Assembly: GCA_964291415.2 (NCBI GenBank)
Contig: OZ219920.1
Location: 448,001 to 512,000 of the forward strand
Length of the DNA stretch: 64,000 nucleotides
Reading direction: 5' to 3'
Source of the DNA: Alphaproteobacteria bacterium
GTDB lineage: Bacteria; Pseudomonadota; Alphaproteobacteria; SP197
Shown here: positions 31,311-55,775 of the stretch, piece by piece
Layout of the letters: every line of letters starts with the position of its first letter
How positions within the stretch are numbered: the first letter of the stretch is position 1
Made by a program: the position numbers and the translations under genes
Notes under the pieces: model-generated
Database searches by the model: none
What the model saw: only the letters and a program-made list of their open reading frames with translations
Told to the model about the DNA's origin: nothing

Positions 31311-31732
31311 GTAACGGACACTCCAGTCGCACGAAACGCTCTCGCAGATATCGTCAATCGGTCCCGCACAAGAACGTGCAGAGCGGCATCTCTACGGCCG
31401 ACAGGAACGGCTCGGACAGTTCGTCGAGAATCGCTCCCATTCGTCCGTGGAAGCGGAGTGATTGATGCCCTCCGCGACAAGAACACTAGCTTCTTCATTT
31501 CCTGACTCCTGCGCGGATCCTACGGTCCCGCCCAATCTATCAGCTGATCCCCTAACCGTAGCCTGCGGACGCGTTCGCCGCGTGCTGCGAATACTCCCCA
31601 GCCTCTCGACCCGTTCCCTGAATGTGTCCGCCAGGAGGCCGAGGCCGGTGGCGGTCGGCCGAGGCTGTTGTCCCCGAGTGGACCAGCCACCGCATTCCTG
31701 GACATTCGGAAAGTTGTGCACGGGGTCCCACC

Positions 31733-32713
31733 ATGGCTACCACCACCAAGAAACGTCGTCACTCCATATCTCCTTCCGGAACCGATGAAAACTCCCACTC
31801 TGCGCTCGTGAATTATGCCAGCAACGGGGAAGGGATCGCTTGCAAGTTTGCCATCAATGAACCCCTGGAGACCAACTTCCCTATCCCGTCACAATGCGCA
31901 GACCTGATTGGTCGCGGAGCGCTGTTGGCACTTTCCCACTCCGGCGGAAAGGACAGTCAGGCCATGACCATCCTGCTCTCCCGCGTCGTTCCCCGAGACC
32001 AGCTCGTTGCAGTCCACGCACCGCTCGGCGAGGTGGAGTGGCCCGGCACGGTCGAGCATATCCAGAACTCTATTCCCCCGGGCGTGCCGCTCATCATGGC
32101 CCCCGTTACGTCCGGCAAGACCCTGCTCCAACAGGTGGAGGAGCGGGGGATGTGGCCGTCGAAGTTTGCCCGATGGTGTACCTCGGGCACGAAGCGCGGA
32201 CCCATCGAGCGCGAGCTACGCCGCTACCTCAAGGCCCATCCGCGCTTCGCGGGACGGCTCGTCAACGCCCTCGGGATCCGCCGCGACGAGAGCCGCGACC
32301 GGGCGCGGCGCATCCCCTGGCGCCGCAACGATCGCATGAGCGCCGCCGGCCGGGAGGTCTTCGACTGGCTGCCCGTGTTCGACTTCACGACGGAGGACGT
32401 GTTCCGCGTCATCGCCGAGGCCGGCCAGACGCCGCACCCCGTCTACTCGTTCGGCCTGACCCGCTGTTCGTGCAGCTTCTGCATCTTCGCGTCGCGCTCG
32501 GACCTGCGCCGCGCGGCGGAACTCCGTCCGGACCTTTACGCCAAATACGCGCAGCTCGAACGGCGCATCGCCCACACGCTCTCGCCCACACGAAAGTATC
32601 TGCCGGAACTCACCGGCATTCCGGTCGAGAGCGCCGTCCGCACGTTGCCCCGGGCCCGCGGCCCCAAAGGAAGTATTCCGACGCGGCCCCGTGCCGCGTC
32701 AGTGTCGCGGTAG
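31733..32713 (+). CDS. Phosphoadenosine phosphosulfate reductase-family protein
   Basis: PP-loop SHSGGKDS, RWCTSGTK, GIRRDESRDRA, RCSCSFC; start uncertain. Confidence 0.85.
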   Translation: MATTTKKRRHSISPSGTDENSHSALVNYASNGEGIACKFAINEPLETNFPIPSQCADLIGRGALLALSHSGGKDSQAMTILLSRVVPRDQLVAVHAPLGEVEWPGTVEHIQNSIPPGVPLIMAPVTSGKTLLQQVEERGMWPSKFARWCTSGTKRGPIERELRRYLKAHPRFAGRLVNALGIRRDESRDRARRIPWRRNDRMSAAGREVFDWLPVFDFTTEDVFRVIAEAGQTPHPVYSFGLTRCSCSFCIFASRSDLRRAAELRPDLYAKYAQLERRIAHTLSPTRKYLPELTGIPVESAVRTLPRARGPKGSIPTRPRAASVSR

Positions 32714-32989
32714 CGGCTCCCCGTAGCGGGCGGTCTCCCAGACCGCGCGACTCGCGGGATGACGGTCCATCCAGTCCTTGTAACCGTCCATCTTGCGCTT
32801 CCAGTCGATTTCGCCGCCGATGTATTCGCCGGTCTCGTCGATGACCCCGCACTCGAGCTCCGCCGCGGTCATGTGCCACCACATGTCGACGTCGGCGGCG
32901 AGCTTTTCCTCGCTGATGCCGTCATGCCCCAGCCGCTTCGCGGTGATGGCCCGCGCGACCGCCTCGATGTTGTCGCTCCAGCTACCCAT
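32699..32989 (-). CDS. Hypothetical protein (96 aa)
   Basis: Natural composition and high GC3; no family recognised. Confidence 0.65.
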   Translation of the reverse strand: MGSWSDNIEAVARAITAKRLGHDGISEEKLAADVDMWWHMTAAELECGVIDETGEYIGGEIDWKRKMDGYKDWMDRHPASRAVWETARYGEPLPRH

Positions 32990-33246
32990 GCCCGCAAGTT
33001 AGCGCCGCCCCGGCGGACTCCGCAAGCCGTCCGTCGACTCCCGCCCGGCCGCCCCGTCCGGGGCCACTCCCGCATTCGCCCGCCGCGCCGCCGACGCTCC
33101 CACGCCGGTGGTCGCCCCGCGGCCGTTATCCCGCCGGCTCCAAGCCGTCCAGCCACCCGGAGACGAGGCCAGCCCGGGCAGGGGTGAAGACCGGAGGCCC
33201 GGGGAGGGTCTCCGCGCCGTGCTCCCGCCATTTCCGGAGGCTGCCC

Positions 33247-34278
33247 ATGACCGTTCCCGACACCATCTCCGCGGACTACACGCTGCGCCCGAGCGAGCTC
33301 GCCTCGGTGCTCGCCCTCCTGGTCGAGGCCCGACAGCCCTGCATCGTCTGGGGCCCGCCCGGCGCCGCCAAGTCGCAGATCGCCCAGCAGGTCGCGGCCG
33401 ACGCAAACCGCGAGTACGTCGACGTCCGCGCGCTGCTGCTCGACCCCGTCGATCTGCGCGGCATCCCCTGGCGCGACGGCGCCGACCGCACCCGCTGGGC
33501 GCCGCCTGCCTTCCTGCCCCCGTCCGACGACCCCGGCCGCTGGCTCATCAACCTCGAAGAGCTGCCGTCCGCCGTGCCGATGGTGCAGGCAGCGCTCTAT
33601 CAGTTGGTGCTCGACCGCAAGGTCGGCGAGTACGAGCTGCCCGAGGGCGCCTCGCTCATCGCCTGCGGCAACCGCGAGACCGACCGCGGGCGTGGTGCAT
33701 CGGATGCCAACCCCGCTCGCGTCCCGTTTCGTTCACCTGGATATCCGGGTCGACGCCGAGGACTGGCTGGCCTGGGGCGCAGCCAACGGTATCGCGGCCG
33801 AGGTGCTGTTCTTCATCACCTACGAGTCGGATCTCCTGCACCAGTTCGACCCGCAGTCGAAGGAGCGCGCGTTCCCCTGTCCGAGGACCTGGGAGTTCGC
33901 GAGCAACATCGTCAAGCGCCGCAACGGGCTCGACCCGGAGGCCGAGCGGGCGCTGTTCCGGGGCACGGTCGGCGAGACCGCGGCGGTCGAGTTCGCGGCG
34001 TTCCTCAAGGTCTGGCGCGAGCTGCCGCACCCGAGGGCGATCGTCAACGACCCCGAGAACGCGGGCATCCCGAACAACGCGAGCGCGCTGATGGCGCTCT
34101 GCGGCGCCCTCTACAAGCTCGCCTCCGACGTCAACTTCGACGCCATCGTCACCTACGCCCAGCGGCTCCGCCGCGAGGTCGGCGAATCGCTCGTCGGCGC
34201 GTGCGTGCGCCGCGAGCCCCTCCAGCGCTCCAGCGCTCGCCCGGCTTCATCCGCTGGGCGGCCGCCAAGACCCAGTGA
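33247..34278 (+). pseudogene. MoxR-like AAA+ ATPase with two indels (~33690, ~34220; possibly sequencing errors)
   Basis: GPPGAAKS, DLRGIP, INLEEL, ACGNRETD, PLASRFVH, PCPRTW; GGAGG RBS. Confidence 0.85.
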
Positions 34279-35341: not shown

Positions 35342-36784
35342 TGTCTGCCCGCGTACTCCAGGAATCGGCGCTCCGCGTCAGCGACTGCGTGACGGAGCTG
35401 CTGCGCAAGCAGCCCTTCTTCGGGAGCCTCGTGCTGAGGCTCCCGCTTCGCCCCGATGCGACGCGCGAGACGCTTGGCGACCGACGGGCACGAGATCCGC
35501 TACTCGCCCCGCTGGGTGGCGGAGACCGATTCGCACCTCATCGAGACCGCGATGGCGCGCGTGGTGATGGCCTGCGCCCTGAAGCACCACACCCGCCGGG
35601 GCGACCGGGACCCCGAGCGCTGGCAGATGGCCTCGCAGCTCGTCACCCATGCGCTCGTTCGCGACGCGGGCTTCACGCTCCCGCCCGACGCGGAAGCCTG
35701 GGACGGGCTCACCGTCGAGCAAGCCTACGACCGCCTCCAGGCCGAGGACGGCGACCCCGGCGACGACGGCGACGCGCCCTCCGATACCGCCGGAGCCGGT
35801 GCCTCGCCCGCCGGCCAATCCTCGCCCGACGGCGATGACGAGGACTCCGACGACGACACCGATTCCGCCGCCGCCGACAGCGACGGCCCCGACGATGACG
35901 GCGACAGCGACGGCCGGGACGATGACGGCGACGGCGATTCTGACGGCGAGGCCGGAGGCGACCAGGACGGGGACGGCCAGGACGGCAACGGCGAGGGCGA
36001 CGATGCTACGCCCGATGCGCCGCCCAGCCACGATCCGTCCGGCACCGGCGAGGTCATGGACGCGGACGCCCGCGCGGGCGACGACGGCGAGCCCGCCGAG
36101 GCGCCGGTGGACGTCACCGCGGAGGAGCAGGCGTGGGACGAGGCCATGCACCAGGCGCTCAACATCGCCCGCGCCGAGGGCAAGGTGCCGGGCCGGGTCG
36201 AGGAGACCATCCAGGGCGCCCATGCCAGCACGCTCGACTGGCGCACGCTGCTGCGCCGCTACATGACCGACGCGGCGAGCCACGACTATAGCTGGAGCGT
36301 TCCCAACCGGCGCTTCATCGACGGCGGTCTCTACCTGCCCTCCATCCGTTCCGAGGGCATCGAGACCATCGCCTTCATCATCGACAGCTCCAGCTCCCTT
36401 GCGACCGCGACACTCGCCGAGTTCTGGGCGGAGCTGCGCGAGGTCGCGGCCGAGATCCGCCCCGAGAGCGTCATCGTCCTCCAGGTCGACACGGTCCTTC
36501 AGGACGCGGCGGAGTACGCCGCCGACGACCTTCCCGACGAGATCGCGGCCAAGGGCCGGGGCGGCACCGACTACCGCCCGGGCTTCGCATGGCTCGACGC
36601 GCAGGGCATCGAGCCGAGGGTGTGCCTCTACTTCACCGACATGGAGTGCTCCGACTACCCGGAGACCGAGCCCGCGTTCCCGGTGCTGTTCTGCGACTAC
36701 GGCGACGAGGAAAGCCCCTGGCGGCACCCCGCGCCCTGGGGCGAGCGCATCAGGATCGCCCCCGACCGGCGGGCCTCGCCGTGA
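35341..36784 (+). pseudogene. DUF2201-type metallopeptidase-like plus vWA protein (+1 indel near 35475)
   Basis: QPFFGSL, ATDG..I.Y.P, acidic linker, DWRTLLRRY, YSW..PNRR, IDSSSS, GRGGTDY, YFTD. Confidence 0.85.
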
Positions 36785-37198: not shown

Positions 37199-39741
37199 AT
37201 GAACCACATCGCACCCATGCACGAATCGGCGATCCGGGACATCCCGCTCTGCCGGCTCGCGCTCGCGCCCGAGAACGTGCGCAAGACCCCGCCCGACGAG
37301 GCGGCCGAGACCCAGCTCCGGGCGTCCATCGCCGAGCACGACCTGCTGGAGAACCTCGTCGTGCGGCCCGACGAGCCGGACGCGGACGGCATCGAGCGCT
37401 TCGCCGTCGTCGCCGGCGGGCGCCGCCTCGCGGCGCTCAAGGCGCTGGCCGAGAACGGCACGCTGCACGCCGATCACCCGGTGCCCTGCAAGATCGCCGC
37501 CAACGGCAACGCCAGCGAGCTCTCGCTCGCGGAAAACGTGGTGCGCATCGCGATGCACCCCGCCGACCAGGTGGTCGCGTTTGCCGGACTGGCCGATTCC
37601 GGCGTCACCGTCCCGGCCATCGCCGCGCGCTTCGGCGTCTCCGAGCGCACCGTCGAGCAGCGGCTTCGCCTCGGCAACGCGGCGCCCGAGCTGCTGGACG
37701 CCTACCGCGCCGAGCAGTTCGACCTCGAGACCCTGATGGCGTTCGCCGTCACCACCGACCACGACCGCCAGCGCAGCGGTTTGGGAGCGGGTGTCGGGGC
37801 AGAACTACCGCCCCGCCGCCTGGCAGGTGAAGCGCATGCTGACCGAGGAGCGGGTGCCCGCCGGCGCGGCTACGGCCCGCTTCGTCGGCGTCGCGGACTA
37901 CGAGGCTGCCGGCGGCCGGGTGCTGCGCGACCTCTTCGCCGACGAGCACGAGAACGGCGTGTGGCTGGAGGACCCGAAGCTGCTCGACGAGCTCGCCATG
38001 AAGAAGCTCCAGGCGGCCGCCGACGAGCTCTCGACCCGCTGGAAGTGGGGGGAGGCCATGGTCGAGGTCGACTGGAGCGCCACCGCGCGCTACGGGCGCA
38101 TCCATCCCGAGCCCGGCGAGCCGACCGACGCCGAGAAGGCCGAGATCGAGCGGCTCACCGCCCGCCACGACGAGCTCGTCAACATGGACGAGGACGCGTG
38201 GACGGACGCGCTGGTCGAGGAGGCCGAAGCCATCGAGCCGCGCCTCGACGAGATCGAGGCCGAGGTCGAATCCCGCGCCCGGTTCAAGCGCGAGGATTTC
38301 GCGATCGCCGGGTGCATCGCCACCATCGGGCGCGACGGCTCGCTCCAGGTCATCCAGGGGCTGGTGAAGCCCGAAGACCTGCCGAAGGACACCGGCGCCG
38401 CCGCGAACGGCCACGACGCCGATGCCGGTGACGACACCACGGCCGACACCGGCCGGGTCAACGGTCCCGCCATCACCACGCCGCTGGCATCGCCCGTCGA
38501 CCCGCGCGCCAAGGCCCGCGCCGACGCGGGCGTCGGCATCGGGCTCGCGGACGATCTGCGGGCCATCCGCACCGCGCTCGTCAAGGCGTATCTCGCGGGC
38601 GACTTCGAGGCCGCGTTCGACCTCGTGGTGTTCCAGATGGTGCGCGCGGTGTTCGCCCGCGGCTACACCGCGTCGTGGCACGCGCTCGACATCCAGTTCA
38701 ACGAGACCGCCGACCGGCCGACGTCCCGGACGAACGACGACGACTTCGCGAGCGTGGAGCCCGGGCGAGGCGATGCTCGCAGACTGGTCGCACCTGCCCT
38801 TCGAGTGGATGGAGGGCGACGACGACGCGGCCTGCTTCGCCGCGCTCCGGGCGCTGCCGCGCGCGGACAAGGAGAAGCTCTTCGCGGCCGCGGTGGCGCG
38901 GACGGTGAAGGGCCAGCTCGCCTTCGAGCACGACGCCCGGCCCGAGCTCGAAGCCACCGTGGCCCGGCTCGACATCGACTTCGCGAAGCACGTGCGGCCG
39001 ACCGCCGACAGCTTCTGGTCGCGCATCAGGAAGAGCCGCATCCTCGACATCGCCCGCGAGACCCTGGGCGCGGCCTGGGCATCGACGCGGTCGAAGTACA
39101 AGAAGGCCGACCTCGCGAACTCGATGGAGGAGGCGTTCGCGGCCGGCACGCCGCCCGTGGGCATCGGCGCCACGATGCACGCCGCCGCGCTCGCGTGGGC
39201 CATTCCGGGGTTCGCGGCGTTCGATTCGGGCGGTGCGCCCGAGGAGGATGCCGCCGCGAACGAGGCCACCGGGGACGCTCAGGCGAACCCCGCGGACGCA
39301 TCCGGGCATGCCACGGCAGATACCGCGGCCGCGGAGAAGCCGCGCGCCACGTCGGTGGTCGAGAGCATCGAGTCCCCGGGCGTCGCGGAGCGCCGCGCCG
39401 CCGCCAGTGCGGAGGCCAACTCCCCGAGCGGCAACGGCGAATCCGTCCCCGCCCCGGATTCCCGCGAAGCTGCCGCCGAAGCCGAGACCGGCGCGAACGG
39501 CAACGGCCACGCCGATCCGGTGCAGGACGAGGCCGAGGCCGGCCCGGAGCCGGTGAACGGCGAGGGCTCGGAGGACGGACAGCCCGAACCCTCCGCCGCC
39601 GACGCCATCGACGCGATGAACCGGGTCCCGACCGCCGACGGCGGGCCCCGGGTCATCGTGCAGACGGTCGGCCCGGTGAACGGCGAGGCTCCGGCGGACG
39701 ACCCGCTGGACATCCCCGAGTTCCTGCGCCGCGTCCACTGA
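37199..39741 (+). pseudogene. ParB/Spo0J-domain protein of conjugative elements (+1 indels near 37772 and 38750), ending in an FtsZ-tail-like peptide
   Basis: PENVRKT, LLENLVV, VVAGGRRLAAL, SLAENVVR, HTH IAARFGVSER; C-terminus DDPLDIPEFLRRVH. Confidence 0.88.
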
Positions 39742-39824: not shown

Positions 39825-41558
39825 ATGAACGACACCGCGACCATCCGCGCCCGCATCCACGACAGCGCCATCCGCCGCGTCACGAGGACCTTCGCTGCGA
39901 CCCTGACCGAGGCGTTCACCGAGATCCTGCAGAACAGCCGCAGGGCCGGCGCCACGCGGGTCCGCGTCGCCGTCTCCGGCGCCGGCGGCAACCTCGCGGT
40001 GAGCGTCACCGACGACGGCGCCGGCATCGCCGATCCGGGCGTCCTGCTCTCGTTCGGCGAGAACGGCTGGACCGAGGACCTGGTACGCCGCGAGGACGCC
40101 GCCGGCATGGGCATGCTCAGCCTCGCGCGGCGCGGCTGCACGGTTTCCTCCCGCCCGCGCGCCGCGAACGGCGAGCCCGCGCCCGGCTGGCGCGTCGCGC
40201 TTCAGCCCGCGCATTTTCTCGGCGAGGCAGAGGCCGAGGTTCACCCGGACGACACGGCGCCCTGGCCCGGCGGCACCGCCGTCGCGTTCGAGGCATACGA
40301 GACCGAGGACGCCGACGCCATCCGCAAGGCGGTCGAGACCGCCGCCTGGCACTACCCCCTGCCGGTCGTGTTCGAGAACGCCCCGGAGACCCCGCCCGGC
40401 GGCGAGACGCTCGAACGCCGCGCCTTCCTCGACGGCGCGCTCCATGCCGAGCCCTGGAAGGGGCTGGTGTTCGGCGTGTTCAAGGACCGCTGGAACGGCA
40501 TCGGCCTCAACGACCCGGACGTCAACTTCCACGGCCTCACCGTCACCGTCCGCCTGCCGTCCGTCAAGGCGGTTCACGGCCCGCACTGGACGGTCGCGGC
40601 CGACGTCGTGGACTGCCCGGAACTGGAGCTCGTGCTGCCCGCACGCAAGGAGGCGGTGGAAACCCCGTTCCTCGACGACATGCGCGAGGCCGCAAGGCTC
40701 GCGATCTACCGCGCCATGGCCGCCGATCCGGACCCGCGCCCGTCCTTCGAGGACCGCAGGCGCGCGCACGAGGCCGGCATCGACATCGCCCCGCCGCCCG
40801 CCGAGCTCCGGCCCTGGCGCCCCGGCCTCGCCGACGTCGACGACTGGCGCGAGCCGCCGAGGCGCGAGCCCGTCGGCGGGGACGCGCTGCTGATGGCGTG
40901 CGACCCCGAACCGCCCGAGGCGCAGGCGCTGTGGCGCGCCGCCGGGCGCGGCGGCATCGCCGGCCGGATGTTCGAGCCCGACCGCCGGCTGGAGGGCTAT
41001 GCCTGGTACGACGCGATCGAGCGCATCGTGAGCATTCACACCGAGGCGACCGTCGGCCGCCGCGGTCACGCGCTCGACCGCTATCCCGTGCCGGAGCGCA
41101 ACGGCGCGCCCGAGGCGCCGCTTCCGCAACGGCCCGATGCCATCCGCATGAGCCTCACCATCCGAGCCGGCAAGGGCGTGGGACGCGTCCTCGACCTCGA
41201 CGCCGATGTCGCCTTCGCGGGCGAAGCCTGGTCCTGGGTCGGCGACGCCCTGCCGCTGGTCACCGCCGCCAGCGACATCGACCCGTTCCAGCTCATGCTG
41301 CTGCTGCGGGCGGGGTATTTCTCGGCCTCCGACGACTCGGACGCCGATTCCTGGGAGCGCCAGCGCGACGTCTTCGAGCAGGAGGCCCACCACATCGCGA
41401 CGCGGCTGCTGGTCTCCGAGGACGCCGCGAGGCGGAGCTCCATCGCCGACGCTGTGACGCGCGAGGTGTTCTGGCTCATCCCGCACGACCGGGGCGCCGA
41501 CATCTCGGTCCGCGACCGCAAGGTCACCGTGACCCTGGGCGCGGCCGCCGCCGGCTGA
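39825..41558 (+). CDS. GHKL (HATPase_c) ATPase domain protein
   Basis: EILQNSRRAGA, DDGAGI, AGMGMLS, GGT motifs. Confidence 0.82.
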   Translation: MNDTATIRARIHDSAIRRVTRTFAATLTEAFTEILQNSRRAGATRVRVAVSGAGGNLAVSVTDDGAGIADPGVLLSFGENGWTEDLVRREDAAGMGMLSLARRGCTVSSRPRAANGEPAPGWRVALQPAHFLGEAEAEVHPDDTAPWPGGTAVAFEAYETEDADAIRKAVETAAWHYPLPVVFENAPETPPGGETLERRAFLDGALHAEPWKGLVFGVFKDRWNGIGLNDPDVNFHGLTVTVRLPSVKAVHGPHWTVAADVVDCPELELVLPARKEAVETPFLDDMREAARLAIYRAMAADPDPRPSFEDRRRAHEAGIDIAPPPAELRPWRPGLADVDDWREPPRREPVGGDALLMACDPEPPEAQALWRAAGRGGIAGRMFEPDRRLEGYAWYDAIERIVSIHTEATVGRRGHALDRYPVPERNGAPEAPLPQRPDAIRMSLTIRAGKGVGRVLDLDADVAFAGEAWSWVGDALPLVTAASDIDPFQLMLLLRAGYFSASDDSDADSWERQRDVFEQEAHHIATRLLVSEDAARRSSIADAVTREVFWLIPHDRGADISVRDRKVTVTLGAAAAG

Positions 41559-41717: not shown

Positions 41718-41930
41718 ATGAAGACCCGCGCCGAACCCCGCCCGGCTCCCGCCGGCATCCCCGCCGCCCCGCCCGACTGCGCCGACGAGGCCAGGAAGCG
41801 CGCCATCGCCCACGCTCTCTGGACCGAGATCCACTGGCTGATGCCGACCGACCGGGCCGTGACCATCACCGTCGACGGCGACGACATCCGCGTCGCGTTC
41901 GGCCCGCCCGCCCGTTCCACGGCCCACTGA
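41718..41930 (+). CDS. Hypothetical protein (70 aa)
   Basis: GGAGA RBS; second half resembles the C-terminus of the upstream GHKL protein (EIHWLMP.DRAV.I.V vs EVFWLIP.DRGA.I.V). Confidence 0.6.
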   Translation: MKTRAEPRPAPAGIPAAPPDCADEARKRAIAHALWTEIHWLMPTDRAVTITVDGDDIRVAFGPPARSTAH

Positions 41931-42024
41931 CCCGGCGCTGCCGCCTCGACGTGGACGTTCCGCGTTCGCCCGCTCGCCGGACGGCGCGATCCCCTCCGCA
42001 TCCTCCACAAGCAGGAACCCCACC

Positions 42025-42434
42025 ATGCCCGAACCCGCCACCGCATTCGGTCCCGTGCTCCACGCCTACACCCGCGCCCAGGCGATCGAGGACGGCATCC
42101 TCGTCGACGTCTCCGAAACCGCGCGCGAGGCCGGTTTCCAGATTCCCGTCGCGGTCACGCGCAGCGTCTGGACCCGCCTGGTTGCCCTGCCCGAGGGCTA
42201 CCGGGGCTTCCAGGACGAGAGCGGGCGCCTGTGGGACGTGCTGTGGATGGCGCGCCACTACGCGCTCCGCGCCTCCAACAGCAACCGCGTGAGGATGTGC
42301 GTGCTGGTGCGCGACATCCGCAAGGACCTCCGCGACAGCAACCGCCCGCCCCGCAGGCACTTCCCCATCGTGGCGATCGGCGCCGGCGACGACGCAGCCC
42401 GGTCATCACCGTGATGTTCCCCGAGGACGACTGA
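42025..42434 (+). pseudogene. DUF6573-like plasmid protein (-1 indel near 42395)
   Basis: YTRAQAIEDGILVDVS, QDESGRLWDVLWM, PVITVMFPEDD. Confidence 0.75.
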
Positions 42435-43154: not shown

Positions 43155-43398
43155 CCCGCCCGGCCGTCCCCGGTATCGCGGCTTCGACAGGCCCGCCCCG
43201 CACACCCTCCCCATAGCACCGCGCCGCGCCCGCACCGCCGGGCGCCGGTACGCCGCCCCCGCCTGATCCCGCACGTCCCGGCCCGCGCCCTCCCGAGGCG
43301 AGGCAGCCGGCCGGGGGCAGGCCCGGCGACGCGGCGCGGGAGCCCTCGCTCTCGCCGCACGGCCGGCGGTTCCACGTCCTGCCACTTCGGAGAATGCC

Positions 43399-46300
43399 AT
43401 GCTCGACGCCCACCCGGCGCCGGACGCGTCCGCGCGCCCGCCGCTTCCCCCCGTATCCGTCCCGGCCACCGGCCCCAACGGCGCCATCGAGGACGCTCCC
43501 GCCGCGCTCCTCGGCGCCGCCCGCACTCTGCTCCCCGTGCTCGAAGCGGGCCGGCCCCTCGACGCCGCCACGCTCCGCGACGCCATGACCCGTGCCTTCG
43601 GCGCGAGCGACTCCGACGGCGCCTGGGTCTGGAAGGACGCCTACGAGGCGGCCGAGGCCGCGGTGGTGATGTTCGTCCGCCGCTACGGACGCGCCATGCG
43701 CCGGCGGGCCGGCGCCGGCGCGGACGGCCCCCGCAGGATGCTCGACATGCTCGCGGCCGTCGCCGCGCTGGAGCCCTCGCACACGAAGCGTTCCGAGGAG
43801 CAGGTCCGGCTCCAGCAGTTCTCCACCCCGCTGCCGCTCGCCTATGCCGCGCTCAAGGCCGCCGCCGTCCGGCCGGGCGACATCGTGCTGGAGCCCAGCG
43901 CCGGCACCGGGATGCTCGCCGTGATGGCGGAGTGCGCGCTCGGCAAGGACGCCGCCGGCCGCCTGTATCTGAACGAGATCGCGGCGGTCCGCGCCGGCCT
44001 GCTCGCGGGGCTGTTTCCCGGCATCGCCGTCACCCGCCACAACGCCGAGGCCCTCGCCGACTTCCTGCCGGGCCTGCGTCCGACCGTGGTGCTGATGAAC
44101 CCGCCGTTCTCGGCGACGCCGGGGATCGAGCGCATCCGCCACGACGCCGATCTGCGCCACCTCCGCTCGGCCTTCTCGATGCTGCCGCCGGGCGGACGGC
44201 TCGCCGCCATCACCTCGGCCCACTGCGTTCCCGGCGACGCCGCCTGGCGCGGCGCCTTCGCCGGCCACGCCGCGCGCACCGTGTTCACCATGGCCATCGA
44301 CGGGCGCGCCTACGCCCGGCGCGGCACCGGCTTCGACACCCGGCTCACCGTCATCGAGCGGAGCGCCGGGGCCGGCATCGACATCGACGGCCAGGCCCGC
44401 GCCGCGACGCCCGCCGCGCTGCTCGACGCGGTCATCGCGCAGGTGCCGCCGCGCGCCGCAATCGAGCCCGAGCCGATCCGGCCCGCGCCCGCCGTCGCCA
44501 GCCGGGACCTGTTCGGCAATGCGGTCACGCCGCCGAAGACCGGGAAGCCGGCCGCCCACGCCGCCCCGAAGACGCCTCGCGACTGGGGTCCCGTCAGCGA
44601 GCTCCCCGTCGAGACGGCGGCGCCGGAGACCGGCCCGGGCGCACCCGTCGCCGCGTCCACCGCCGGCCCCTACGAGCCCTGGCGCCCGAGCGTCGTGCGG
44701 GTGCCGGGCGCCATCGAGCACCCGACCCCGCTCGTGCAGTCCGGTGCGATGGCCGCCGTGTCCCATCCGGTGCCGGCCTTCCGCCCCATGCTGCCCGAGC
44801 GGGCGGTGACGGACGGGCTGCTGTCCGACGCCCAGCTCGAGAGCGTGGTCCTGGCGGGGGAGGCCCACTCGCGCCACCTCGCCGCCGACTACCGCATCGG
44901 CTCCGGCTGGGAGACCGTCCACCGCTGCCGCGAGGACGACGGCGAAGAGATCGACACCGCTTGTCTCACCGATGACGGCGAAACGCTGTCGGCCCCGGTC
45001 CGGTTCCGGCGCGGCTGGATGCTGGGCGACGGCACGGGCGCCGGCAAGGGCCGCCAGGTCGCCGCCATCGTGCTCGACAACTGGCTCCAGGGCCGCAGGC
45101 GCGCGCTCTGGCTCTCGCAGTCGGACAAGCTCGTCGAGGACGCGCGCCGCGACTGGACCGCGCTCGGGGGCGCGACGACGACGTCATCCCCCTCGGCAAG
45201 TTCCGCCAGGGGGCGGAGATCCCGCTCTCGGAGGGCATCCTGTTCGCCACCTACGCGACGCTGCGCTCGCCGGCCCGGCAGGGGAAGGCGTCCCGGCTCG
45301 ACCAGATCGTCGACTGGCTCGCGGGCTCGCTCGACGAGGACGACCGCCACGCCTTCGACGGGGCGGTGATCTTCGACGAAGCGCATGCGATGGCCAACGC
45401 GGCGGGGTCGAAGGGCAATCGCGGCGAGGTCGCGCCGTCCCAGCAGGGACGCGCCGGACTCAGGCTCCAGAACGCGCTCCCCGATGCGCGCATCGCCTAC
45501 GTCTCGGCGACCGGCGCCACCACCGTCCCCGGTCTCGCCTACGCCGGTCAGCCTGGGCCTGTGGGCCGCCGGCGAGACGCCCTTCGAGAAGCGCACCGAC
45601 TTCGTCTCCGCCATGGAGGCGGGCGGGGTCGCGGCGCTCGAAGTGGTCGCGAGGGACTTGAAGGCCCTCGGGCTCTACCAGGCCCGCGCGCTCTCCTACG
45701 ACGGGGTCGAGGTCGAGATCCTCGAACACCCGCTCTCCGACGCCCAGCGGCGCATCTACGACGCTTATGCCGGCGCGTTCAAGGTCATCCACCACAACAT
45801 CCAGGAGGCGCTGAAGGCGACCGGCATCACGCAGGGCGACGCCACCCTCAACAAGAACGCCAAGTCGGCCGCCATGAGCGCGTTCGAGGGCGCGAAGCAG
45901 CGCTTCTTCGGGCACCTGCTGACCAGCATGAAGTGCCCTTCGCTCATCCGCGCGATCGAGGCCGACCTCGATTCCGGCCGCTCGCCCGTCATCCAGCTCG
46001 TCTCCACCGGCGAGGCGCTGATGGAGCGGCGCATCGCCGAGATCCCGGCGTCCGAGTGGGACGACATCAACGTCGACCTGACGCCGCGCGAGACCGTCAT
46101 CGAGTTCCTGGCCCACGCCTTCCCGGTGCAGCTCCAGGAGCCGTTCACCGACGACGACGACAACGTCATGAGCCGGCCGGTGTTCGACGAGGACGGCAAC
46201 CCCGTCATCTGCCAGGAGGCCGCCGCCCGCCGCGACGCGCTCATCGAGAAGCTCGCGTCATTGCCGCCGGTGCCCTCCGCGCTCGACCAGATCGTGCAGC

Positions 46301-47897
46301 ACTTCGGGCACGACGCCGTCGCGGAAGTGACGGGACGGTCCCGCCGGGTGCTGAAGATCACCGACGCCCGCGGCGAGCGCCTCGCGCTGCGCACCCGGCC
46401 CGCCTCGGCCAACCTCGCCGAGACCGCGGCGTTCATGGACGGCGAGAAGCGCATCCTGGTGTTCTCGATGGCGGGCGGCACCGGCCGCAGCTATCACGCC
46501 GATCTCGCCTGCGGCAACACCGAGCGGCGCATCCACTACCTGCTGGAGCCCGGATGGCGGGCCGACCAGGCCATCCAGGGGCTCGGCCGCACACATCAGG
46601 ACGCACCAGGCGTCCGCGCCGCTCTTCCGCCCCGTCGCGACGGACGTGAAGGGCGAGCGGCGGTTCATCGCCACCATCGCGCGCAGGCTCGACAGCCTCG
46701 GGCGCGATCACGCGCGGCCAGCGCGATTCGCAGACCGCGATGGGCGGCGACCAGGCGCTGTTCCGCGAGAGCGACAACCTGGAGAGCCTGTACGCCAAGG
46801 CGGCGCTGCGGCAGTTCTACATGGCGCTCCACCGCGGCGCCATCGAGGGCTGGTCCCTCGCCGACTTCGAGGAGGCGACCGGCCTCAAGCTCGTCCACGA
46901 GGGAACCCTCAAGGAGGACCTGCCGCCGATGTCGCGGTTCCTCAACCGGCTCCTGGCACTCCCCATCGCCGAGCAGAACCAGCTCTTCGCGGCATTGGAG
47001 ACCCGCATCGAGTCGAACATCGAGCAGGCGATGGAGGCCGGCAGCTACGAGGTGGGCGTCGAGACGGTGCGCGCTGACTCGCTCTCCACCGCGGGCCGCG
47101 AGACGCTGTATGAGCATCCCCGCACCGGGGCCGCGACCGACCTCGTCGAGATCGTCCGCCGCGACCGGCTGGAGCCCACGACCGCCGAAACCGCGCTCGA
47201 CATCGGCGCCCGCGATCCGGGGCCGGACGGCAAGCCGTCGCTGGTCGTGAACGCGCGCTCGAAGCGGGCCGCCATCCTGCTGCCGGCGCCGTCGCGCCTG
47301 TTCGACGACGGCGGGGTCCAGGAGCGGACGCGCCTCGTCCGGCCCGCGACCCGCGAGACGATGGCGCGGACGGAGCTCGACGCGTCCCACTGGCGCCCGG
47401 CCGACGAGCCGACCTGGCGCGCGCTCTGGGAGCACGAGACGACTGAGCTGCCGACCCACCGGGAATCGCGCTTCTGGCTCGCGGCCGGATTGCTTCTGCC
47501 TATCTGGGACCGGCTGCCGTTCGAGAACATGCGGGTGCGCCGGCTCACCACCGACGCGGGCGAGGCCCTCATCGGCCGCGTGCTCGACGCCGAGCAGGTG
47601 AGAGCCGTGCGCACGAGCTTCGGCCTCGGCGGCGCGTTCGCCATGACCGGCGCCGAAGCGTTCGAGGCGGTCATGGGACGCGGCACCGCGCTCGCGCTCG
47701 CCAACGGCTGGCGGCTCGCGCGCCGGCGCATCATGGGCGCCGACCGCGTCGAGATCGAGGGACCGGTCGACGGCGACACCGATGCGCTGAAGCGCATGGG
47801 CTGCACCGTCGAAATCGTGTCGTGGCGGGCGCGCGCCTTCGCCCCCGGCGCGCACGTCCTCGACCGCATCCTAGAACGCTGGCCGCTCGCCTCATGA
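43399..47897 (+). pseudogene. Methyltransferase plus strawberry-notch-like SF2 helicase (indels near 45170, 45550, 46598, 46700)
   Basis: LQQFSTP, LEPSAGTG, MNPPFS, LSDAQLE, GDGTGAGKGRQ, FDEAHAMAN, VSATGA, AGGTGRSYH, QGLGRTH. Confidence 0.9.
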
Positions 47898-48587: not shown

Positions 48588-48847
48588 CCGCTTCGCCGGT
48601 TTCGCCGGACGCCGCCGCTCAGCCGGCGTCCGCCCCTCCCTCCAGCCCGCCCCGAACGGGACGTCCCGCCGGCCGGCCTTCGGCCGCGCGGGGCACGTGC
48701 CGCCGGCCCGCCGCCCTCGGGCAACGCGGCCCGGACTCGCCGCGTACATCGCAACGAGGCGGAGTCCGGCGCACGCGAGGGCGCGGACCGGCAGGGCAGT
48801 GAAGAGCCTCCGGGCCGCACCCCTTCGCTGCCGTACGAGGAGGCGAC

Positions 48848-49537
48848 ATGTCCGCCGAATCCGCTCTCGCCCTCGCACCTGCTGCGCCACTGTCCCGCGC
48901 CGCGCTTCCGCCGCCCGCGCCCGTTCTCGCCCGCATCGCGCGGGGAGGCCCCGCCGCCCTGGACGACCACGAGCTGCTCGCGCTCCTCGGAATCGCCGTC
49001 GACGCCCGCACCCTCGCCGCCGCCGGGGGGCTCCGGGGACTCCTCGACGACCCCGACGATCTCTGGCGCACCGTGGTCCTTCCTGCCGAGGACCGCGCCC
49101 GCGTTCACGCGCTCCTCGACGTGCACGCCCGCTGGATGGAGGCCCGGCTCCACCGCGACGGCGGGCCGCTCACCTCGCCGGACCACACGCAGCGCTACAT
49201 CGAGGCGCGGCTCCGGGGCTACCGCAACGAGGTGTTCGCGATGCTCTACATGGACAGCCGCCACCGCATCATCGCGTTCGAGGAGACCTTCTCCGGCACG
49301 GTCGACGGCACCACCGTCCATCCGCGCGTCGTCGTGCGCCGCGCGCTGATGCACAACGCCGCGGCCTGCATCGCCGCGCATTCGCACCCCTCGGGCGTGG
49401 CAGAACCGAGCTCCGCCGACCGCGCCATCACCAGGCGGCTTCACGACGCGCTCGCCCTGGTCGAGATCCGCCTCATCGACCACTTCGTCGTCGGCGACGG
49501 GGAGCTGGTCTCGTTCGCCGAATGCGGCCTCCTGTAG
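48848..49537 (+). CDS. radC: RadC/JAB-domain protein
   Basis: ALDDHELLALL, NEVFAMLY, VHPRVV, HSHPSGVAEPSSAD, LIDHFVVG. Confidence 0.92.
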   Translation: MSAESALALAPAAPLSRAALPPPAPVLARIARGGPAALDDHELLALLGIAVDARTLAAAGGLRGLLDDPDDLWRTVVLPAEDRARVHALLDVHARWMEARLHRDGGPLTSPDHTQRYIEARLRGYRNEVFAMLYMDSRHRIIAFEETFSGTVDGTTVHPRVVVRRALMHNAAACIAAHSHPSGVAEPSSADRAITRRLHDALALVEIRLIDHFVVGDGELVSFAECGLL

Positions 49538-50425: not shown

Positions 50426-50531
50426 GAGGGAAGCGAGGGAAGGGTGAACGGGAAGGGGCCGGGGGGAGTGAACCCCGGTCCCCCCGCTTCGCAACCCATC
50501 GTCAGCAACCAGGAACCTCAGGAGACGAATC

Positions 50532-50999
50532 ATGGCTTTCGGATTGAACCTCGCGCAGCTCATCGGCCGGCTCGGCGACGACGTGCGCATCAACCACCTC
50601 CCCTCCGGCGGGCGCGTGGCGAACATGAGCATCGCCACCGACGAGTCGTACATCGACAAGAACACCGGCGAGCGGATGGACCGGACCGAGTGGCACCCGG
50701 TCGTCACCTTCCAGCCCGGCCTGGTCGACATTCTCGAGAAGCACGCGAAGAAGGGCCGGCTGGTCTACGTCGCGGGCAAGCTCCAGACCCGGCGCTGGCG
50801 CAAGGACGGCGAGGACTCCGACCGCTTCACCACGGAGATCATCCTGATCCCCGGGGGCAAGGTCCAGTTCCTCGACAAGCCCAAGACCGCCAACGGCGCG
50901 TCGACGTCGGACGCCCAGGCGCCCGCGAGCGGCCCGGCGATGCCGGCCGGCGGCGCCCCGGTGCCCATGGACGACCCCGATAGCGACATCCCGTTCTGA
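50532..50999 (+). CDS. ssb: Single-stranded DNA-binding protein
   Basis: LIGRLGDD, TEWHPVV, GKLQTRRW, acidic tail DSDIPF. Confidence 0.96.
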   Translation: MAFGLNLAQLIGRLGDDVRINHLPSGGRVANMSIATDESYIDKNTGERMDRTEWHPVVTFQPGLVDILEKHAKKGRLVYVAGKLQTRRWRKDGEDSDRFTTEIILIPGGKVQFLDKPKTANGASTSDAQAPASGPAMPAGGAPVPMDDPDSDIPF

Positions 51000-51875: not shown

Positions 51876-52907
51876 GTGAACGCGGCCGCCATCGCCGCCG
51901 CGCTGGCTGAGCGCGCCGAGGCCGTGTGCCGGCAGTACCTGCCACACGGCCGGCGCCAGGGCCGCTACTGGGTCGCGGGCGACCTCGACGGCGCCCGCGG
52001 GCGCTCGCTCTACGTGCGGCTCCGACCCCCCGGCACGCCGGGGAAGTGGACGGATGCTGCCGAGGGGACGCACGGCGACCTGCTCGACATCATCCGCCAC
52101 CGCTCGCGCGCGCCGACGCTTCGCGCGGCGCTCGACGAGGCCCGCGCCTTCCTCGCCCTGCCGGCTGCGCCGGCCGCGGGCGGGAGCTCGGGCGATTCCT
52201 ACGACGCCTCCGAGGCGGCGCGCCGTCTCTGGGCGCGTTGCCGCGCCATCGACGGCACGCACGCGGAAGCGTATCTCCGCGCCCGGGGGCTCGCGCGCTG
52301 CCGCTTCGCGGCGCTGCGCTTCCACCCCGAGCTTCGCTATCGCGAAGGCTCGACCGTGCGCCGCCTGCCGGCGCTGGTCGCCGCCGTGACCGGCGACGAC
52401 GGCGCCGTCTCCGGCGTGCAGCGCACCTGGCTCGACCCCCGCTCGCCCGCCAAGGCGGGCGTCGCATCCCCTCGCAAGGCGCTCGGGCGCATCTACGGCC
52501 TCGCGGTCCGCTTCGGGCGCCCCGCCGACGGCGCTTCGCTCCTCGTCGGCGAGGGCATCGAGACCGTTCTCTCCCTGGTGACCGCCGTGCCGGAGATCAC
52601 CGCCGCCGCCGCGCTCTCCGCCGGGAGCCTCGGCGCATTCGCGCCTCCGCCCGGGGTCGCGCGTCTGGTCATTGCGCGCGACAACGACGAGGAAGGTGAG
52701 CGGGCGGCGGAACGCCTCGCCCGGCGCTGCGCGCGGGCGGGCGTCGCCGCCCTGATGCTCGTCCCCGAGGGCGAGGACTTCAACGACGACCTCATTGCAC
52801 TCGGCCGCGACGCGCTCGCGGCGCGTCTCTCGCCGCTGCTCCGCGTTCCGCTCCGCACCGGCTCGCGCGAGTGGGAGTGCGCGCTTCGCTTAGGGCGAGA
52901 GCAGTGA
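51876..52907 (+). CDS. Toprim-domain DNA primase-like protein
   Basis: GKWTDAAEG, AEAYLRARGL, GEGIETVLS, ARDND, DFNDDL. Confidence 0.88.
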   Translation: MNAAAIAAALAERAEAVCRQYLPHGRRQGRYWVAGDLDGARGRSLYVRLRPPGTPGKWTDAAEGTHGDLLDIIRHRSRAPTLRAALDEARAFLALPAAPAAGGSSGDSYDASEAARRLWARCRAIDGTHAEAYLRARGLARCRFAALRFHPELRYREGSTVRRLPALVAAVTGDDGAVSGVQRTWLDPRSPAKAGVASPRKALGRIYGLAVRFGRPADGASLLVGEGIETVLSLVTAVPEITAAAALSAGSLGAFAPPPGVARLVIARDNDEEGERAAERLARRCARAGVAALMLVPEGEDFNDDLIALGRDALAARLSPLLRVPLRTGSREWECALRLGREQ

Positions 52908-52920
52908 AGGGAGAGGGAGC

Positions 52921-53718
52921 ATGGCCCGCATCGTCAATCTGAAGCACGAGCCCGACGCCGTCGCGCGCGGCGCGGTGCGCATCGACCGCCGCACGCGCTG
53001 GGGAAATCCCTATCGGATAGGCCGTGACGGAACGAGGGACGAGGTGATTACGCGCTATCGCGCGCACCTCTGGCGCCAGATCCGCTCGGGCGAAATCGCC
53101 CTCGCGGATCTCGCTTCGCTCGATTCCCGCGACCTGGCGTGTTGGTGCCATCCGAAGCCCTGTCACGGCACGGTGCTCGCCCGCGCGGCGGCCTGGGCCG
53201 CCGGCGAGCTTCGCCGCCGTGTCGCGTCGCCCGAACCGATTCTGTTCTGGTCGCGCTGCCCGGAGTGGGGATGGCTCTCGAACTTCGCCGCCGCCGGCTT
53301 CGCCGGCCCCGGCGGCGAAGTCTGGTCGAGCGTCGAGCACTGGTACCAGGCCGGCAAGGCGGCGGACCCGGCGGCGGTCGAGCGTATCCGCCGCGCGGCG
53401 ACGGCGCGCGAGGCGCAGCGCCTCGGGCGCGCCGTGCGCTGCCGCGCCCGCTGGGACGACGCGAAGCTCGCGCGCATGGCGGAGGGGCTGCTGCTCCGCT
53501 TCGCTCCGCAGCGCCCCGACACCGCGCGGCTGCTCGCCACCGGCGAGCGCGCGCTCCGCCACGCCACGCCCTGGGGCGCGCACGGCGACCCCTTCTGGGG
53601 CATCGGCCGCGACGGGGCCGGCGCCAACCGCCTCGGCCGGATGCTGGACGCCATCCGTGCCGCGCGCCGGGACGGCGCGCCGCTCGATGCCGACGCACTC
53701 GCCGGGCGCGTCCGCTGA
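52921..53718 (+). CDS. DUF4326 - NADAR (YbiA-like) fusion protein
   Basis: N-half RTRWGNPY...DLACWCHPKPCHGTVL; C-half WLSNF, SVEHWYQAGK, DPFWG, GANRLGRML..IR. Confidence 0.85.
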   Translation: MARIVNLKHEPDAVARGAVRIDRRTRWGNPYRIGRDGTRDEVITRYRAHLWRQIRSGEIALADLASLDSRDLACWCHPKPCHGTVLARAAAWAAGELRRRVASPEPILFWSRCPEWGWLSNFAAAGFAGPGGEVWSSVEHWYQAGKAADPAAVERIRRAATAREAQRLGRAVRCRARWDDAKLARMAEGLLLRFAPQRPDTARLLATGERALRHATPWGAHGDPFWGIGRDGAGANRLGRMLDAIRAARRDGAPLDADALAGRVR

Positions 53719-54442: not shown

Positions 54443-54773
54443 AGGAGGAGCAGGAGAGAAAGCTGCCTCCCGCCGTGACTGGGCATTGTCCCACACGTGC
54501 TCAGTGCGCCAACCCCTGCGGGGTCCTCCGCTGACGCTCCGGCCGGGACTCGCAGGGCAACGGCGCTGGCGCGCCTAGTCCCGGCGGCGCGCGCGACCGT
54601 GGCTCGCTCGCTTCGCTCCCTGCGCCCGCACCACTCGCGCACACAGCCGGGCCATGCCCTGCGGCCCCGGTGGCTCCCCTGCGCGCGCGTGAAACATACC
54701 CAGTCACCACGGGGGAGGCCCCGAGGACGAGCCGCAGACGGTTCGAGACACTCACTTCCATCAGGAGAACGTC

Positions 54774-55775
54774 ATGACTGACATCGACCGCACCGACACC
54801 ACGATGGGCCACGCCTTCGCACAGGCCGGCTTCGACTTCGACGCCACCGCCGTCATCGAGACCGGCGACGACGGGCCGCGCGAGGAGTCCCAGACCGCCA
54901 TCGCTTGCGAGCACGCCCAGCTCTTCGGCGCAACGCCCGAGCGCGACGAGTTCGACCCGCGCGAGGTCTGGGACGCCGACGACGCGACCGACGCGGTGGG
55001 CGAAGCCTTCCGCATCCTCGCCGAGGGCGTCGCACCGGACGGCTTCCAGCTCGCCGACGAGCGCGAGAGCCTGCTGTGGGGCTTCGTCAACTGCCTCGAC
55101 GCCCAGGTGCGCCGCCTCGACCGCGCCACCGACCGGCTCCTCCCGGAGATGCGCGACCTCGAACGCGCGCAGGACGGCACCGAGGTGAAGGCCCGCGAGC
55201 TGGAGCTCATCACCGACCGGGCGCGGAACTTCGGCGACCGCCGCGACGCGTTCGAGACCATGCGCGACCTCGCCGCCGACGCCTACCGCACCGAGACCGG
55301 CGACCTCTGGCGCCCGCGGCGCGGCAGCCACGTCAGCCAGACCGGGCACCTCACCTCGGCGGCCATCGACGCCCGCGACTTCCAGCGCGCCCGCAAGGAC
55401 CGCGAGCTCCGGGCGCACCTGCCGCAGGGCACCCTCGTCGCCATCGCGGGCGGGAAGCACGTCGCCGACGTGGGCGCCGTCATCGCCCGCCTCGACAAGG
55501 CCCGCGAGAAGTACGCCGACATGGTGCTGGTGCACGGCGGCGGCCCCGGCGTCGAGCGCATCGCGGCGCAGTGGGCCGAACGGAACGACGTGCACCAGGT
55601 GGTGTGCAAGCCCGACTGGACCGCCCACGGACGCGCCGCTCCCTTCCGCCGCAACGACGAGCTGCTGAACCTGCTGCCGAAGGGCGTCATCGCCTTCCCC
55701 GGTTCGGGCATCACCGACAACCTCGTCGACAAGGCCGTCGCGCTGGGCATCCCGGTGCAGCGCTGCGCCGCCTGA
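54774..55775 (+). CDS. DUF2493 (YspA/SLOG) domain protein
   Basis: LVAIAGG, LVHGGG.GVERIA..WA, AAPFRRN..LL, IAFPGSGIT.NL. Confidence 0.85.
   Translation: MTDIDRTDTTMGHAFAQAGFDFDATAVIETGDDGPREESQTAIACEHAQLFGATPERDEFDPREVWDADDATDAVGEAFRILAEGVAPDGFQLADERESLLWGFVNCLDAQVRRLDRATDRLLPEMRDLERAQDGTEVKARELELITDRARNFGDRRDAFETMRDLAADAYRTETGDLWRPRRGSHVSQTGHLTSAAIDARDFQRARKDRELRAHLPQGTLVAIAGGKHVADVGAVIARLDKAREKYADMVLVHGGGPGVERIAAQWAERNDVHQVVCKPDWTAHGRAAPFRRNDELLNLLPKGVIAFPGSGITDNLVDKAVALGIPVQRCAA

Follow-up and report, generated by a model that had tools for sequence, protein, structure and literature searches.

Why should a ParB-like protein encoded on a mobile element end in a peptide that resembles the tail of the cell division protein FtsZ? 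The question is raised by the gene at 37199-39741 of a 64,000-nucleotide stretch of an alphaproteobacterial genome (contig OZ219920.1, positions 448,001 to 512,000; hereafter the window), whose last reading frame finishes with the peptide DDPLDIPEFLRRVH. FtsZ's conserved peptide at the C-terminus (CTC) is the central docking handle of bacterial cell division. On balance we think it probable, by a modest degree, that the ParB tail is a mimic of this peptide which would dock DNA-bound ParB onto the receptors of FtsZ; that the tail imitates the CTC appears well supported by comparison of the sequences.

The frame bearing the tail opens at 38422 and runs to a TGA stop codon at 39739-39741, ending ...APADDPLDIPEFLRRVH, with the tail itself encoded by 39697-39738 and the stop directly after. 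Upstream of the linker the same frame reads ...AALAWAIPGFAAFD, with the end of the C-terminal domain near 39222. The intervening linker has 158 amino acids, 77% of them A, E, G, P, D, S or T, and a net charge of -24, while the linker of the host's own FtsZ has 166 amino acids and a net charge of -16. As the GC content of third codon positions (GC3) remains at 0.87-0.95 in the tail's frame across 39220-39690, this linker stretch is taken to be coding. Modelled by AlphaFold2 from an alignment of 39 sequences, the piece of 322 residues has a helical domain at residues 1-146 with a per-residue confidence (pLDDT) of 50-95; most of residues 147-322 fall below 50, and short helices occupy 202-215, 275-284 and, on EFLR, 316-319. 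The helix predicted at 275-284 belongs to a second conserved block within the linker (AIDAMNxVPTADGGPRVIVQTVGPVNG). In both tail subtypes of ParB, the tail is preceded by the dipeptide NG at a distance of 8-12 residues. An earlier, sequence-only reading of this DNA had described a ParB that continues in frame from its C-terminal domain through an acidic linker of about 150 amino acids to an FtsZ-like end. The linker and the end stand, given the 158 residues, the position of the tail and the GC3 signal, and the C-terminal domain does share their frame; missed in that reading was that the rest of the gene lies in two other frames.

A search for longer relatives of the piece found 1626, of which the best 120, all with at least 66% identity, were examined. 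Among these listed homologues, 118 of 120 end in [IV]P[EK]FLR[RQ][VI]H, the other two having unrelated ends. Entropy per alignment column is 1-2 bits in the linker versus 0.06-0.25 bits in the tail, and in alignment A4 (39 sequences, 42-100% identity) the only invariant columns are P315, F317, L318 and R319, all of them in the tail. No other part of the C-terminal half is as well conserved as the tail, and the conservation check proposed with the sequence-only reading has come out in its favour, the terminal motif being kept far better than the linker. These data bear on the most trivial explanation, that of a chance likeness within a functionless read-through extension of high GC content. Long spurious open frames are indeed common at 68% GC, but the 118 homologues keep their tail despite synonymous codon changes, with invariant columns, and neither the GC3 coding signal nor the shuffled and reversed-pattern controls described below agree with such an origin. 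The conservation data refute this explanation, to which we assign a negligible probability.

The host genome has a single FtsZ (contig C2, ftsZ; L001:442-2337), with the gene for FtsA directly upstream, and this protein ends ...DDDLSIPSFLRRRE, or at greater length ...ESFGNDDDLSIPSFLRRRE. Set side by side, the host FtsZ ends ...GNDDDLSIPSFLRRRE and ParB ends ...ADDPLDIPEFLRRVH, and eight of 11 core residues are identical between DPLDIPEFLRR of ParB and DDLSIPSFLRR of the host FtsZ. The ParB tail agrees with the CTC consensus acidic-x-L-[DE]-I-P-x-F-L-R-[RK] and also with its placing: before it lies a long disordered linker that is poorly conserved, and after it come a few variable residues. Among the 21,596 stop-to-stop frames of at least 100 amino acids in the genome, FtsZ and the ParB frame are the only ones to carry [IVL]P.[FY][LM][RK][RKQ] in their last 16 residues; shuffled tails gave 0-1 matches per run, with four in 20 runs. 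When the same frames were scanned with a position-specific scoring matrix of 48 unique ParB tails, ParB ranked 1st and FtsZ 10th, the latter because the host FtsZ tail is atypical, and four inspected frames ranked above FtsZ look non-coding. The host tail (DDDLSIPSFLRRRE) departs from the class consensus ..LEIPAFLRRQAN in having S for [DE], S for A and another end.

A comparison across the host's class is possible with a sample of 401 genomes, 10 of which possess the ParB C-terminal domain, with up to five scored copies each. Among 25 distinct copies, 21 end ..L[DE]IPEFLRRV[HRQ], ..MPEVPEFLRRIH, ..LLEIPAFLRRG or ..LEIPAFLRRTP, and the co-resident FtsZ proteins end ..[DE]D[LP]LEIPAFLRRQA[NT] (..LLEIPAFLRRQAN), or ..NLDIPAFLKRQAN in one genome. 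Over the 11-residue core, ParB and co-resident FtsZ mostly have 7-10 identical residues, with one pair at 4/11, and sister copies ending ...LLEIPAFLRRG reach 10/11 with the FtsZ of their own genome. Position tables of the two proteins agree at D(-5), L(-3), D/E(-2), I(-1), P, F, L, R and R, that of FtsZ being drawn from 41 FtsZ-type termini (one from the unpublished genome G240, L121), 30 of them found by a pattern that itself imposes IP.FL and 10 via PF12327 without that constraint. Just 2-6 codons are common to ParB and co-resident FtsZ at identical residues, and the ParB copies differ among themselves by synonymous changes. Since the residues match while the codons differ, the likeness appears to be kept by selection on the protein, and not to stem from a recent copy of ftsZ DNA. 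Recent capture of the 3′ end of ftsZ is ruled out by these differing codons.

The resemblance to the FtsZ C-terminal peptide that had been claimed from the window alone is thus borne out by the end of the host FtsZ, the conservation of the tail, the 7-10 of 11 residues shared with co-resident FtsZ and the common architecture. Both proteins have a long acidic disordered C-terminal linker of similar length, then [DE]-x-L-[DE]-I-P-x-F-L-R-R, and lastly a small number of variable residues. Unlike in FtsZ, the module sits on a DNA-binding protein and not on a tubulin-like GTPase, position +1 is mostly E in ParB and A in FtsZ, and the final residues are VH, G or S in ParB and QAN in FtsZ. Five or more tail-bearing ParB copies occur in each of the single genomes G006, G155 and G191 (loci L005, L010 and L016-L030), and from such copy numbers, together with 6-8 motif matches per genome, it appears that these chromosomes harbour several related elements.

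As a functional short linear motif, the ParB peptide would occupy the host sites that normally hold the CTC. FtsZ is described, in passages of a recent preprint, as a GTPase followed by a disordered linker and a conserved peptide, with FtsA as a membrane anchor that binds the peptide and FzlC and FzlA as alpha-specific partners (10.1101/2023.09.08.556907). FtsA would be the first candidate receptor, being a widely conserved CTC-binding membrane anchor encoded beside ftsZ in the host. MinC_C was not found in the host genome. MipZ was set aside as a receptor, as FtsZ without its C-terminal peptide is still MipZ-sensitive according to part of a published study (PMC9897490). With many ParB copies loaded on DNA, the element DNA would display many tails, and could through them be held at the membrane-proximal division machinery. 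Alternatively, the tails could be competitors of FtsZ at its anchors, and division would be delayed locally in the period when the element is excised or has just arrived. A complex prediction with residues 1-385 of host FtsA and the last 45 residues of ParB gave a score of 0.00, which, obtained without controls, counts neither way.

The motif is also found beyond ParB. A DNA pattern for IP[ADE]FL followed by two R/S codons has a match in 281 of the 401 class genomes (a tally that takes in the unpublished G240 and G040), usually once, and its reversed control is rare in class genomes. Counts of 6-8 matches belong to the genomes that have several ParB copies; of 17 matches in five other multi-match genomes, 5 are FtsZ, 1 is another protein with the motif at its end, and the remaining 11 are internal or junk frames. 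In genome G294 (locus L159), a frame of 489 amino acids present besides the main FtsZ ends ..DNIPAFLRRPVVR; this may be a second FtsZ paralogue or another motif carrier. On the viral contigs of IMG/VR, EIPAFLRR was found at 17 loci, DIPAFLRR at 52 and [DE]IPEFLRR at 26, the reversed control RRLFAPID giving 6 loci, each of them a short junk frame. The 95 matches to [DE]IP[AE]FLRR (loci L162-L256; examples being L162:546-1637, L211:2301-4640, L168:4962-5606 and L190:2129-2896) fall into 42 sequence clusters, 34 of which have a frame of at least 100 amino acids, and in 16 of these 34 the motif lies at most 15 residues from the stop. The motif often lies at the C-terminus after a low-complexity linker, and the clusters that carry it include at least 30 unrelated ones. 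The residue just before the acidic one, a position that the pattern does not impose, is hydrophobic in 25 of the 34 clusters (background 0.39), and the seven preceding positions hold 1.56 acidic residues versus 0.92 in the background. The viral carriers include MT-A70 methylases, one of them fused to ParB_N, an N6_N4 methylase, GapR-like DNA-binding proteins, a helix-turn-helix (HTH) family of 257 amino acids and DUF3102, as well as several proteins without a family. In about 20 MT-A70 proteins the motif lies about 105 residues before the end. There is also one small viral protein with the RK version of the motif, ending ..LDIPAFLRKQAD / ..DDVPLDIPAFLRKQAD, which equals an E. coli-type FtsZ tail including its variable end KQAD.

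It is possible, and we would put it at somewhat less than an even chance, that mobile elements have made a general strategy of copying the FtsZ docking peptide, one used by the ParB-like proteins of integrative conjugative elements and by dozens of unrelated phage proteins that bind or modify DNA. Carried on flexible linkers, the motif would plug its carriers into the hub that normally holds FtsZ. The division apparatus could then serve element DNA as a landmark or an anchor, or host division could be throttled. If true, this would be a parallel, in bacteria, to the mimicry of host motifs that is known from eukaryotic viruses, and mobile DNA would have a simple, portable means of reaching or jamming the division machinery. 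With the recurrence of the motif on phage proteins, the finding gains in generality and in interest.

Several observations weigh against the view that the tail docks ParB onto receptors of FtsZ. Its binding side, that is the binding to CTC receptors, the choice among them and the consequence, consists of steps that we infer. The window copy of the gene is broken in frame (see below), so the DNA-binding protein bearing the tail may not be made here. The ParB tail does not follow the LSIPSFLRRRE of its host and keeps to the consensus of its subfamily. The wider family also varies at this end. Clustering at 50% identity leaves 149 representatives, 111 of which extend to the end of the C-terminal domain, and while 40 of these have a terminal [IVLM]P.[FWY][LMI] motif (within 6 residues of the end), 28 have no extension, with a stop right after the domain; a further 7 have an internal motif, 4 a PAFLQ-type end that the script placed in the long-extension group, and 32 a long extension of another kind, many resembling wrong-frame products. 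In a phylum sample of 401 genomes, a profile of distant members picked up the wider family in 40, and 39 loci from this sample were read (L041-L080, the window's own excluded). An internal [DE]LP[AEDP]FL followed by about 20 mostly acidic residues was found in 13 of these 39 loci, the other 26 lacking [DE]LP[AEDP]FL, and the terminal FLRR form was seen in none of the 39. Given these differences, the close copy of FtsZ may have been preceded by the looser LPxFL, which lacks the basic RR and may have another partner.

The remaining points of this kind concern the viral carriers, which are mostly DNA methylases and DNA-binding proteins with no obvious link to the divisome, and on which the motif is at times internal or N-terminal. 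The RK version was found at three IMG/VR loci, all without a Pfam family, and in the IMG/VR scans the actinobacterial-type tail had 0 loci and the Firmicutes-type tail 1, an irrelevant repeat protein. This narrow spread counts somewhat against FtsA in particular, as a wider one might be expected with FtsA as the target.

The variation within the family lends some credit to a second explanation, in which the tail is a docking peptide for a different partner, such as a neighbour on the element or a host hub that is not concerned with division, and has converged on a generic acidic-[LIV]P-x-F-L helix. It accords with the wider family, where LP[AEDP]FL is followed by acidic and not basic residues, is often internal and is accompanied by a separate conserved ..AAE end, with the failure of the ParB tail to track the odd tail of the host FtsZ, and with the conservation in ParB, and not in FtsZ, of the block at residues 271-300 and of the NG about 8-12 residues upstream. 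Convergence of this kind does not readily account for the 10/11 residues shared with co-resident FtsZ in many copies, among them the flanking LLE and RR, nor for the viral protein that reproduces even the variable KQAD, and terminal occurrences in the checked genomes belong to FtsZ, the ParB family and one further protein. We regard this explanation as unlikely, if worth keeping in mind. The ..AAE end occurs in 26 of the 39 phylum loci, namely the 13 with the internal motif and 13 others; loci from other classes have neither feature and end ..LAA, ..HAA or ..QAA. Locus L042 has two copies of the internal [DE]LP[AEDP]FL.

ClpX uses the C-terminus of FtsZ. The tail could copy the part of FtsZ that a protease or adaptor uses, serving not for docking onto the divisome but as a degradation signal (for ClpXP or ClpAP) that would shorten the life of ParB and of the phage methylases and DNA-binding proteins with the motif, or link it to the cell cycle. 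Both the ParB subfamily and 16/34 viral clusters have the motif at the C-terminal end, and in some viral carriers it stands at the extreme N-terminus, both ends being usual for such tags; DNA methylases and GapR-like proteins are moreover proteins that plausibly need limited levels. A position about 105 residues from the end, as in the roughly 20 MT-A70 proteins, would be unusual for a terminal tag, however, and what is conserved is the hydrophobic core of the FtsZ CTC (L, I, P, F, L) and not just the terminal residues, which differ between ParB (VH, G, S, TP) and FtsZ (QAN). Among the papers that a literature search with the motif string listed is a review of bacterial degrons (PMC8138137). 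Degradation seems to us an improbable function of the tail, though one still to be reckoned with.

Known couplings between DNA and division offer some parallels to a docking mimic of the CTC. Noc, a nucleoid occlusion protein of the Firmicutes, has its own amphipathic helix for the membrane, SlmA has a TetR-like fold, and in the MatP-ZapB system a site-specific DNA-binding protein tethers the terminus region to the division machinery. Kil, T7 gp0.4 and DicB are proteins of mobile elements that interfere with the Z-ring. Like the ParB-like protein, Noc is a ParB-fold CTPase on DNA, and its link to the membrane couples DNA position to division, as stated in excerpts of two papers (PMC4331003, PMC12704722); it differs in being chromosomal, whereas here the link would run via a copied FtsZ peptide and a host receptor. 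SlmA, according to the sections consulted of PMC4117426, is an FtsZ antagonist activated by DNA; it is also DNA-bound and acts on division through the interface of the FtsZ C-terminal peptide. It binds the FtsZ tail, however, while the ParB tail imitates that tail and would bind its receptors, and the two folds are unrelated. MatP differs in working via ZapB and ZapA without a copy of the FtsZ tail, and in being a host system and not one of a mobile element. The division inhibitors of phages and prophages, to which P1 Icd can be added from part of PMC11897509, are alike in being mobile-element proteins that interfere with the Z-ring; in contrast to ParB they are small dedicated inhibitors with their own folds that bind FtsZ or its partners, and in the literature search none of Kil, T7 gp0.4, DicB and Icd was found described as a copy of the FtsZ tail.

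Related by fold are BisD of ICEclc and the ParB of PRTRC systems; orphan proteins of the ParB-CTPase fold without ParA are frequent on mobile elements (PMC12704722, passages found). This 2025 survey of the fold reports orphan ParB proteins on mobile elements and many fusions, and the passages found in it do not mention an FtsZ-like tail (PMC12704722). Literature searches found no report of a ParB or other mobile-element protein with such a tail and, in the library searched, no paper containing the string IPAFLRR, in agreement with the sequence-only reading, which knew of no described system of this kind. Should docking via the tail prove true, motif mimicry of a cytoskeletal hub would join Noc, SlmA and MatP among the couplings of DNA position and division, and orphan ParB proteins would gain a partner. 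The natural peptide variants may also serve as probes of the interface between FtsZ and its receptors, which is an antibiotic target.

The protein itself belongs to a large uncharacterised family of orphan ParB-like proteins of about 700-990 amino acids on integrative conjugative elements of the host's class, whose plan is a ParB/Spo0J-type CTPase-fold N-terminal domain, an HTH and a helical C-terminal domain. Residues 8-190 of an intact homologue (P0001, 846 amino acids) align to Spo0J (1vz0, E-value 2.5e-9) and residues 12-198 to Noc (7nfu, E-value 4e-6), indicating an N-terminal domain of ParB type. In the former alignment GGRR falls on GERR and ENVVR on ENLQR (VVAGGRRL/LVAGERRY and LAENVVR/LVENLQR), stretches which we take to be the nucleotide-binding boxes, and VVAGGRRL and LAENVVR are also present in the first piece of the window gene. 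This piece has an HTH_23 match after the N-terminal domain (26.1 bits, cut-off 24.6, residues 131-156) and a ParB_N match of 20.4 bits, below the cut-off of 26.3, and PF02195 is precomputed for most of the 120 homologues listed. There is a partial N-terminal match to PRTRC_parB (E-value 2.7e-16). Unlike the PRTRC ParB proteins, it reaches just 59.2 bits against TIGR03734, over the N-terminal 180 residues, far below the cut-off of 278.6; with 31.4 bits against Noc TIGR04285 (cut-off 315) and a score also far below the PRK13832 cut-off, it is a member of none of these. No Pfam family was found for the middle region or the C-terminal domain, and none of FtsZ/tubulin in any of the ParB-like pieces, the only FtsZ_C match of the genome being that on C2. 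No ParA-type family was detected among about 40 window open reading frames scanned with Pfam (not every one was), and no parS search was made. A plasmid collection has 78 related records, all below 60% identity and none covering the linker or the tail, and the tail-bearing subfamily was not found among these plasmids; these relatives, from Sulfitobacter, Sphingopyxis, Shewanella, Vibrio and others, are annotated as ParB, RepB or Spo0J.

In the window this gene is not one intact open reading frame, as P0001 maps to it by tblastn in three different frames with two +1 breaks (Table 1), while the homologues and the syntenic copy in genome G006 are intact. The host genome has one copy of the gene (tblastn with P0001). 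Contigs of relatives in four public sequencing runs, which provide relatives' fragments only, have one base fewer at 37775 or 37778 and at 38750 or 38754. No public run that was found contains half of the window's words; the best share is 0.40, and the runs concerned come from marine, sponge and coral metagenomes and from coded organisms. Against the intact syntenic element of G006, compared over 32989-34237, 37199-39741 and 43279-47894, there are seven frame breaks in about 15 kb of the window: one near 33690, the two already described for ParB, and four within the Sbn-like helicase gene, near 45170, 45555, 46599 and 46701. Host core genes have one such join in 28 genes and 37.7 kb aligned to a same-genus genome, so the breaks are concentrated in the element, which is probably decaying unless the region is poorly assembled. 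With two frameshifts of its own in an element carrying seven, the ParB copy of the window would be a decaying one and is probably defunct. The frameshift-like join of the host, seen on comparison of a gene with its homologue from the same genus, is at G000:C4:619675-620283. The host genome measures 4.44 Mb with 8.99% contamination, versus 2.8 Mb in two genomes of the same genus.

The surroundings of the gene are those of an integrated conjugative element, and the placing of ParB on a mobile element in the sequence-only reading is confirmed by five tyrosine recombinases, a MobF/TrwC relaxase, SSB, RadC and the Sbn-like helicase. Host genes (for SMC, an ABC transporter and a solute-binding protein) stop near 21 kb, and element genes follow. 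Substrates of type IV secretion systems often bear positively charged C-terminal signals. The position of the gene among genes of leading-region type (SSB, RadC, Sbn-like helicase) near the relaxase is what would be expected if the basic C-terminus were a signal for the transfer of ParB into the recipient by the element's own secretion system. Yet the same motif occurs on proteins of phages, which have no conjugative export, and its core is hydrophobic with a proline and just two arginines, equal to the FtsZ tail, so that a secretion signal appears very improbable. The window holds no tRNA.

Table 1. Features of the window (window positions), followed by the viral proteins with the RK version of the motif (IMG/VR locus and positions)
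Feature	Position	Strand	Basis or remark
Five tyrosine recombinases in a row at the element edge	21634-27487		three adjacent or overlapping, 22734-25947
PAPS-reductase-like gene	31622-32710		
DUF2201	35456-36781		
ParB	37199-39741		
ParB-like piece 1: ParB/Spo0J-type N-terminal domain and HTH, P0001 residues 1-193	37199..37777	+	tblastn 98% identity, Pfam
First frame break, coding frame shifts +1	37775..37778	+	GC3 plot (near 37770), tblastn frames 3 to 1
ParB-like piece 2: middle region, P0001 residues 193-524	37776..38771	+	tblastn 96% identity
Second frame break, coding frame shifts +1	38750..38765	+	GC3 plot (near 38750), tblastn frames 1 to 2, overlap 38755-38771
ParB-like piece 3: P0001 residues 519-846	38755-39738		tblastn
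Piece 3a: conserved helical C-terminal domain, ending ...AWAIPGFAAFD	38773..39222	+	column identity 0.84-0.99 among 118 homologues; AlphaFold2
Acidic low-complexity linker, predicted disordered, 158 amino acids	39223..39696	+	composition, pLDDT, entropy among homologues
Second conserved block within the linker, ..AIDAMNRVPTADGGPRVIVQTVGPVNG..	39595..39684	+	column identity 0.83-0.96, residues 271-300 of the piece
FtsZ-CTC-like terminal peptide DDPLDIPEFLRRVH and stop codon	39697..39741	+	sequence, homologue conservation
HATPase_c protein	39840-41555		
DUF6573	41863-42411		
Sbn-like helicase, 1581 amino acids	43267-47894		
RadC	48803-49534		
SSB	50472-50996		
DUF4326-NADAR fusion	52894-53715	+	
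YAcAr (SLOG) protein	54693-55772	+	
SIR2_2-domain protein	57646-58890	-	adjoins relaxase
MobF/TrwC relaxase	60564-63545	-	
Viral carrier of the RK version	L265:7368-7697	-	
Viral carrier of the RK version	L264:1-1140	-	
Viral carrier of the RK version	L263:10728-11249	+	

The genes for the SIR2_2-domain protein, the DUF4326-NADAR fusion and the YAcAr protein may represent defence or counter-defence cargo of the element.

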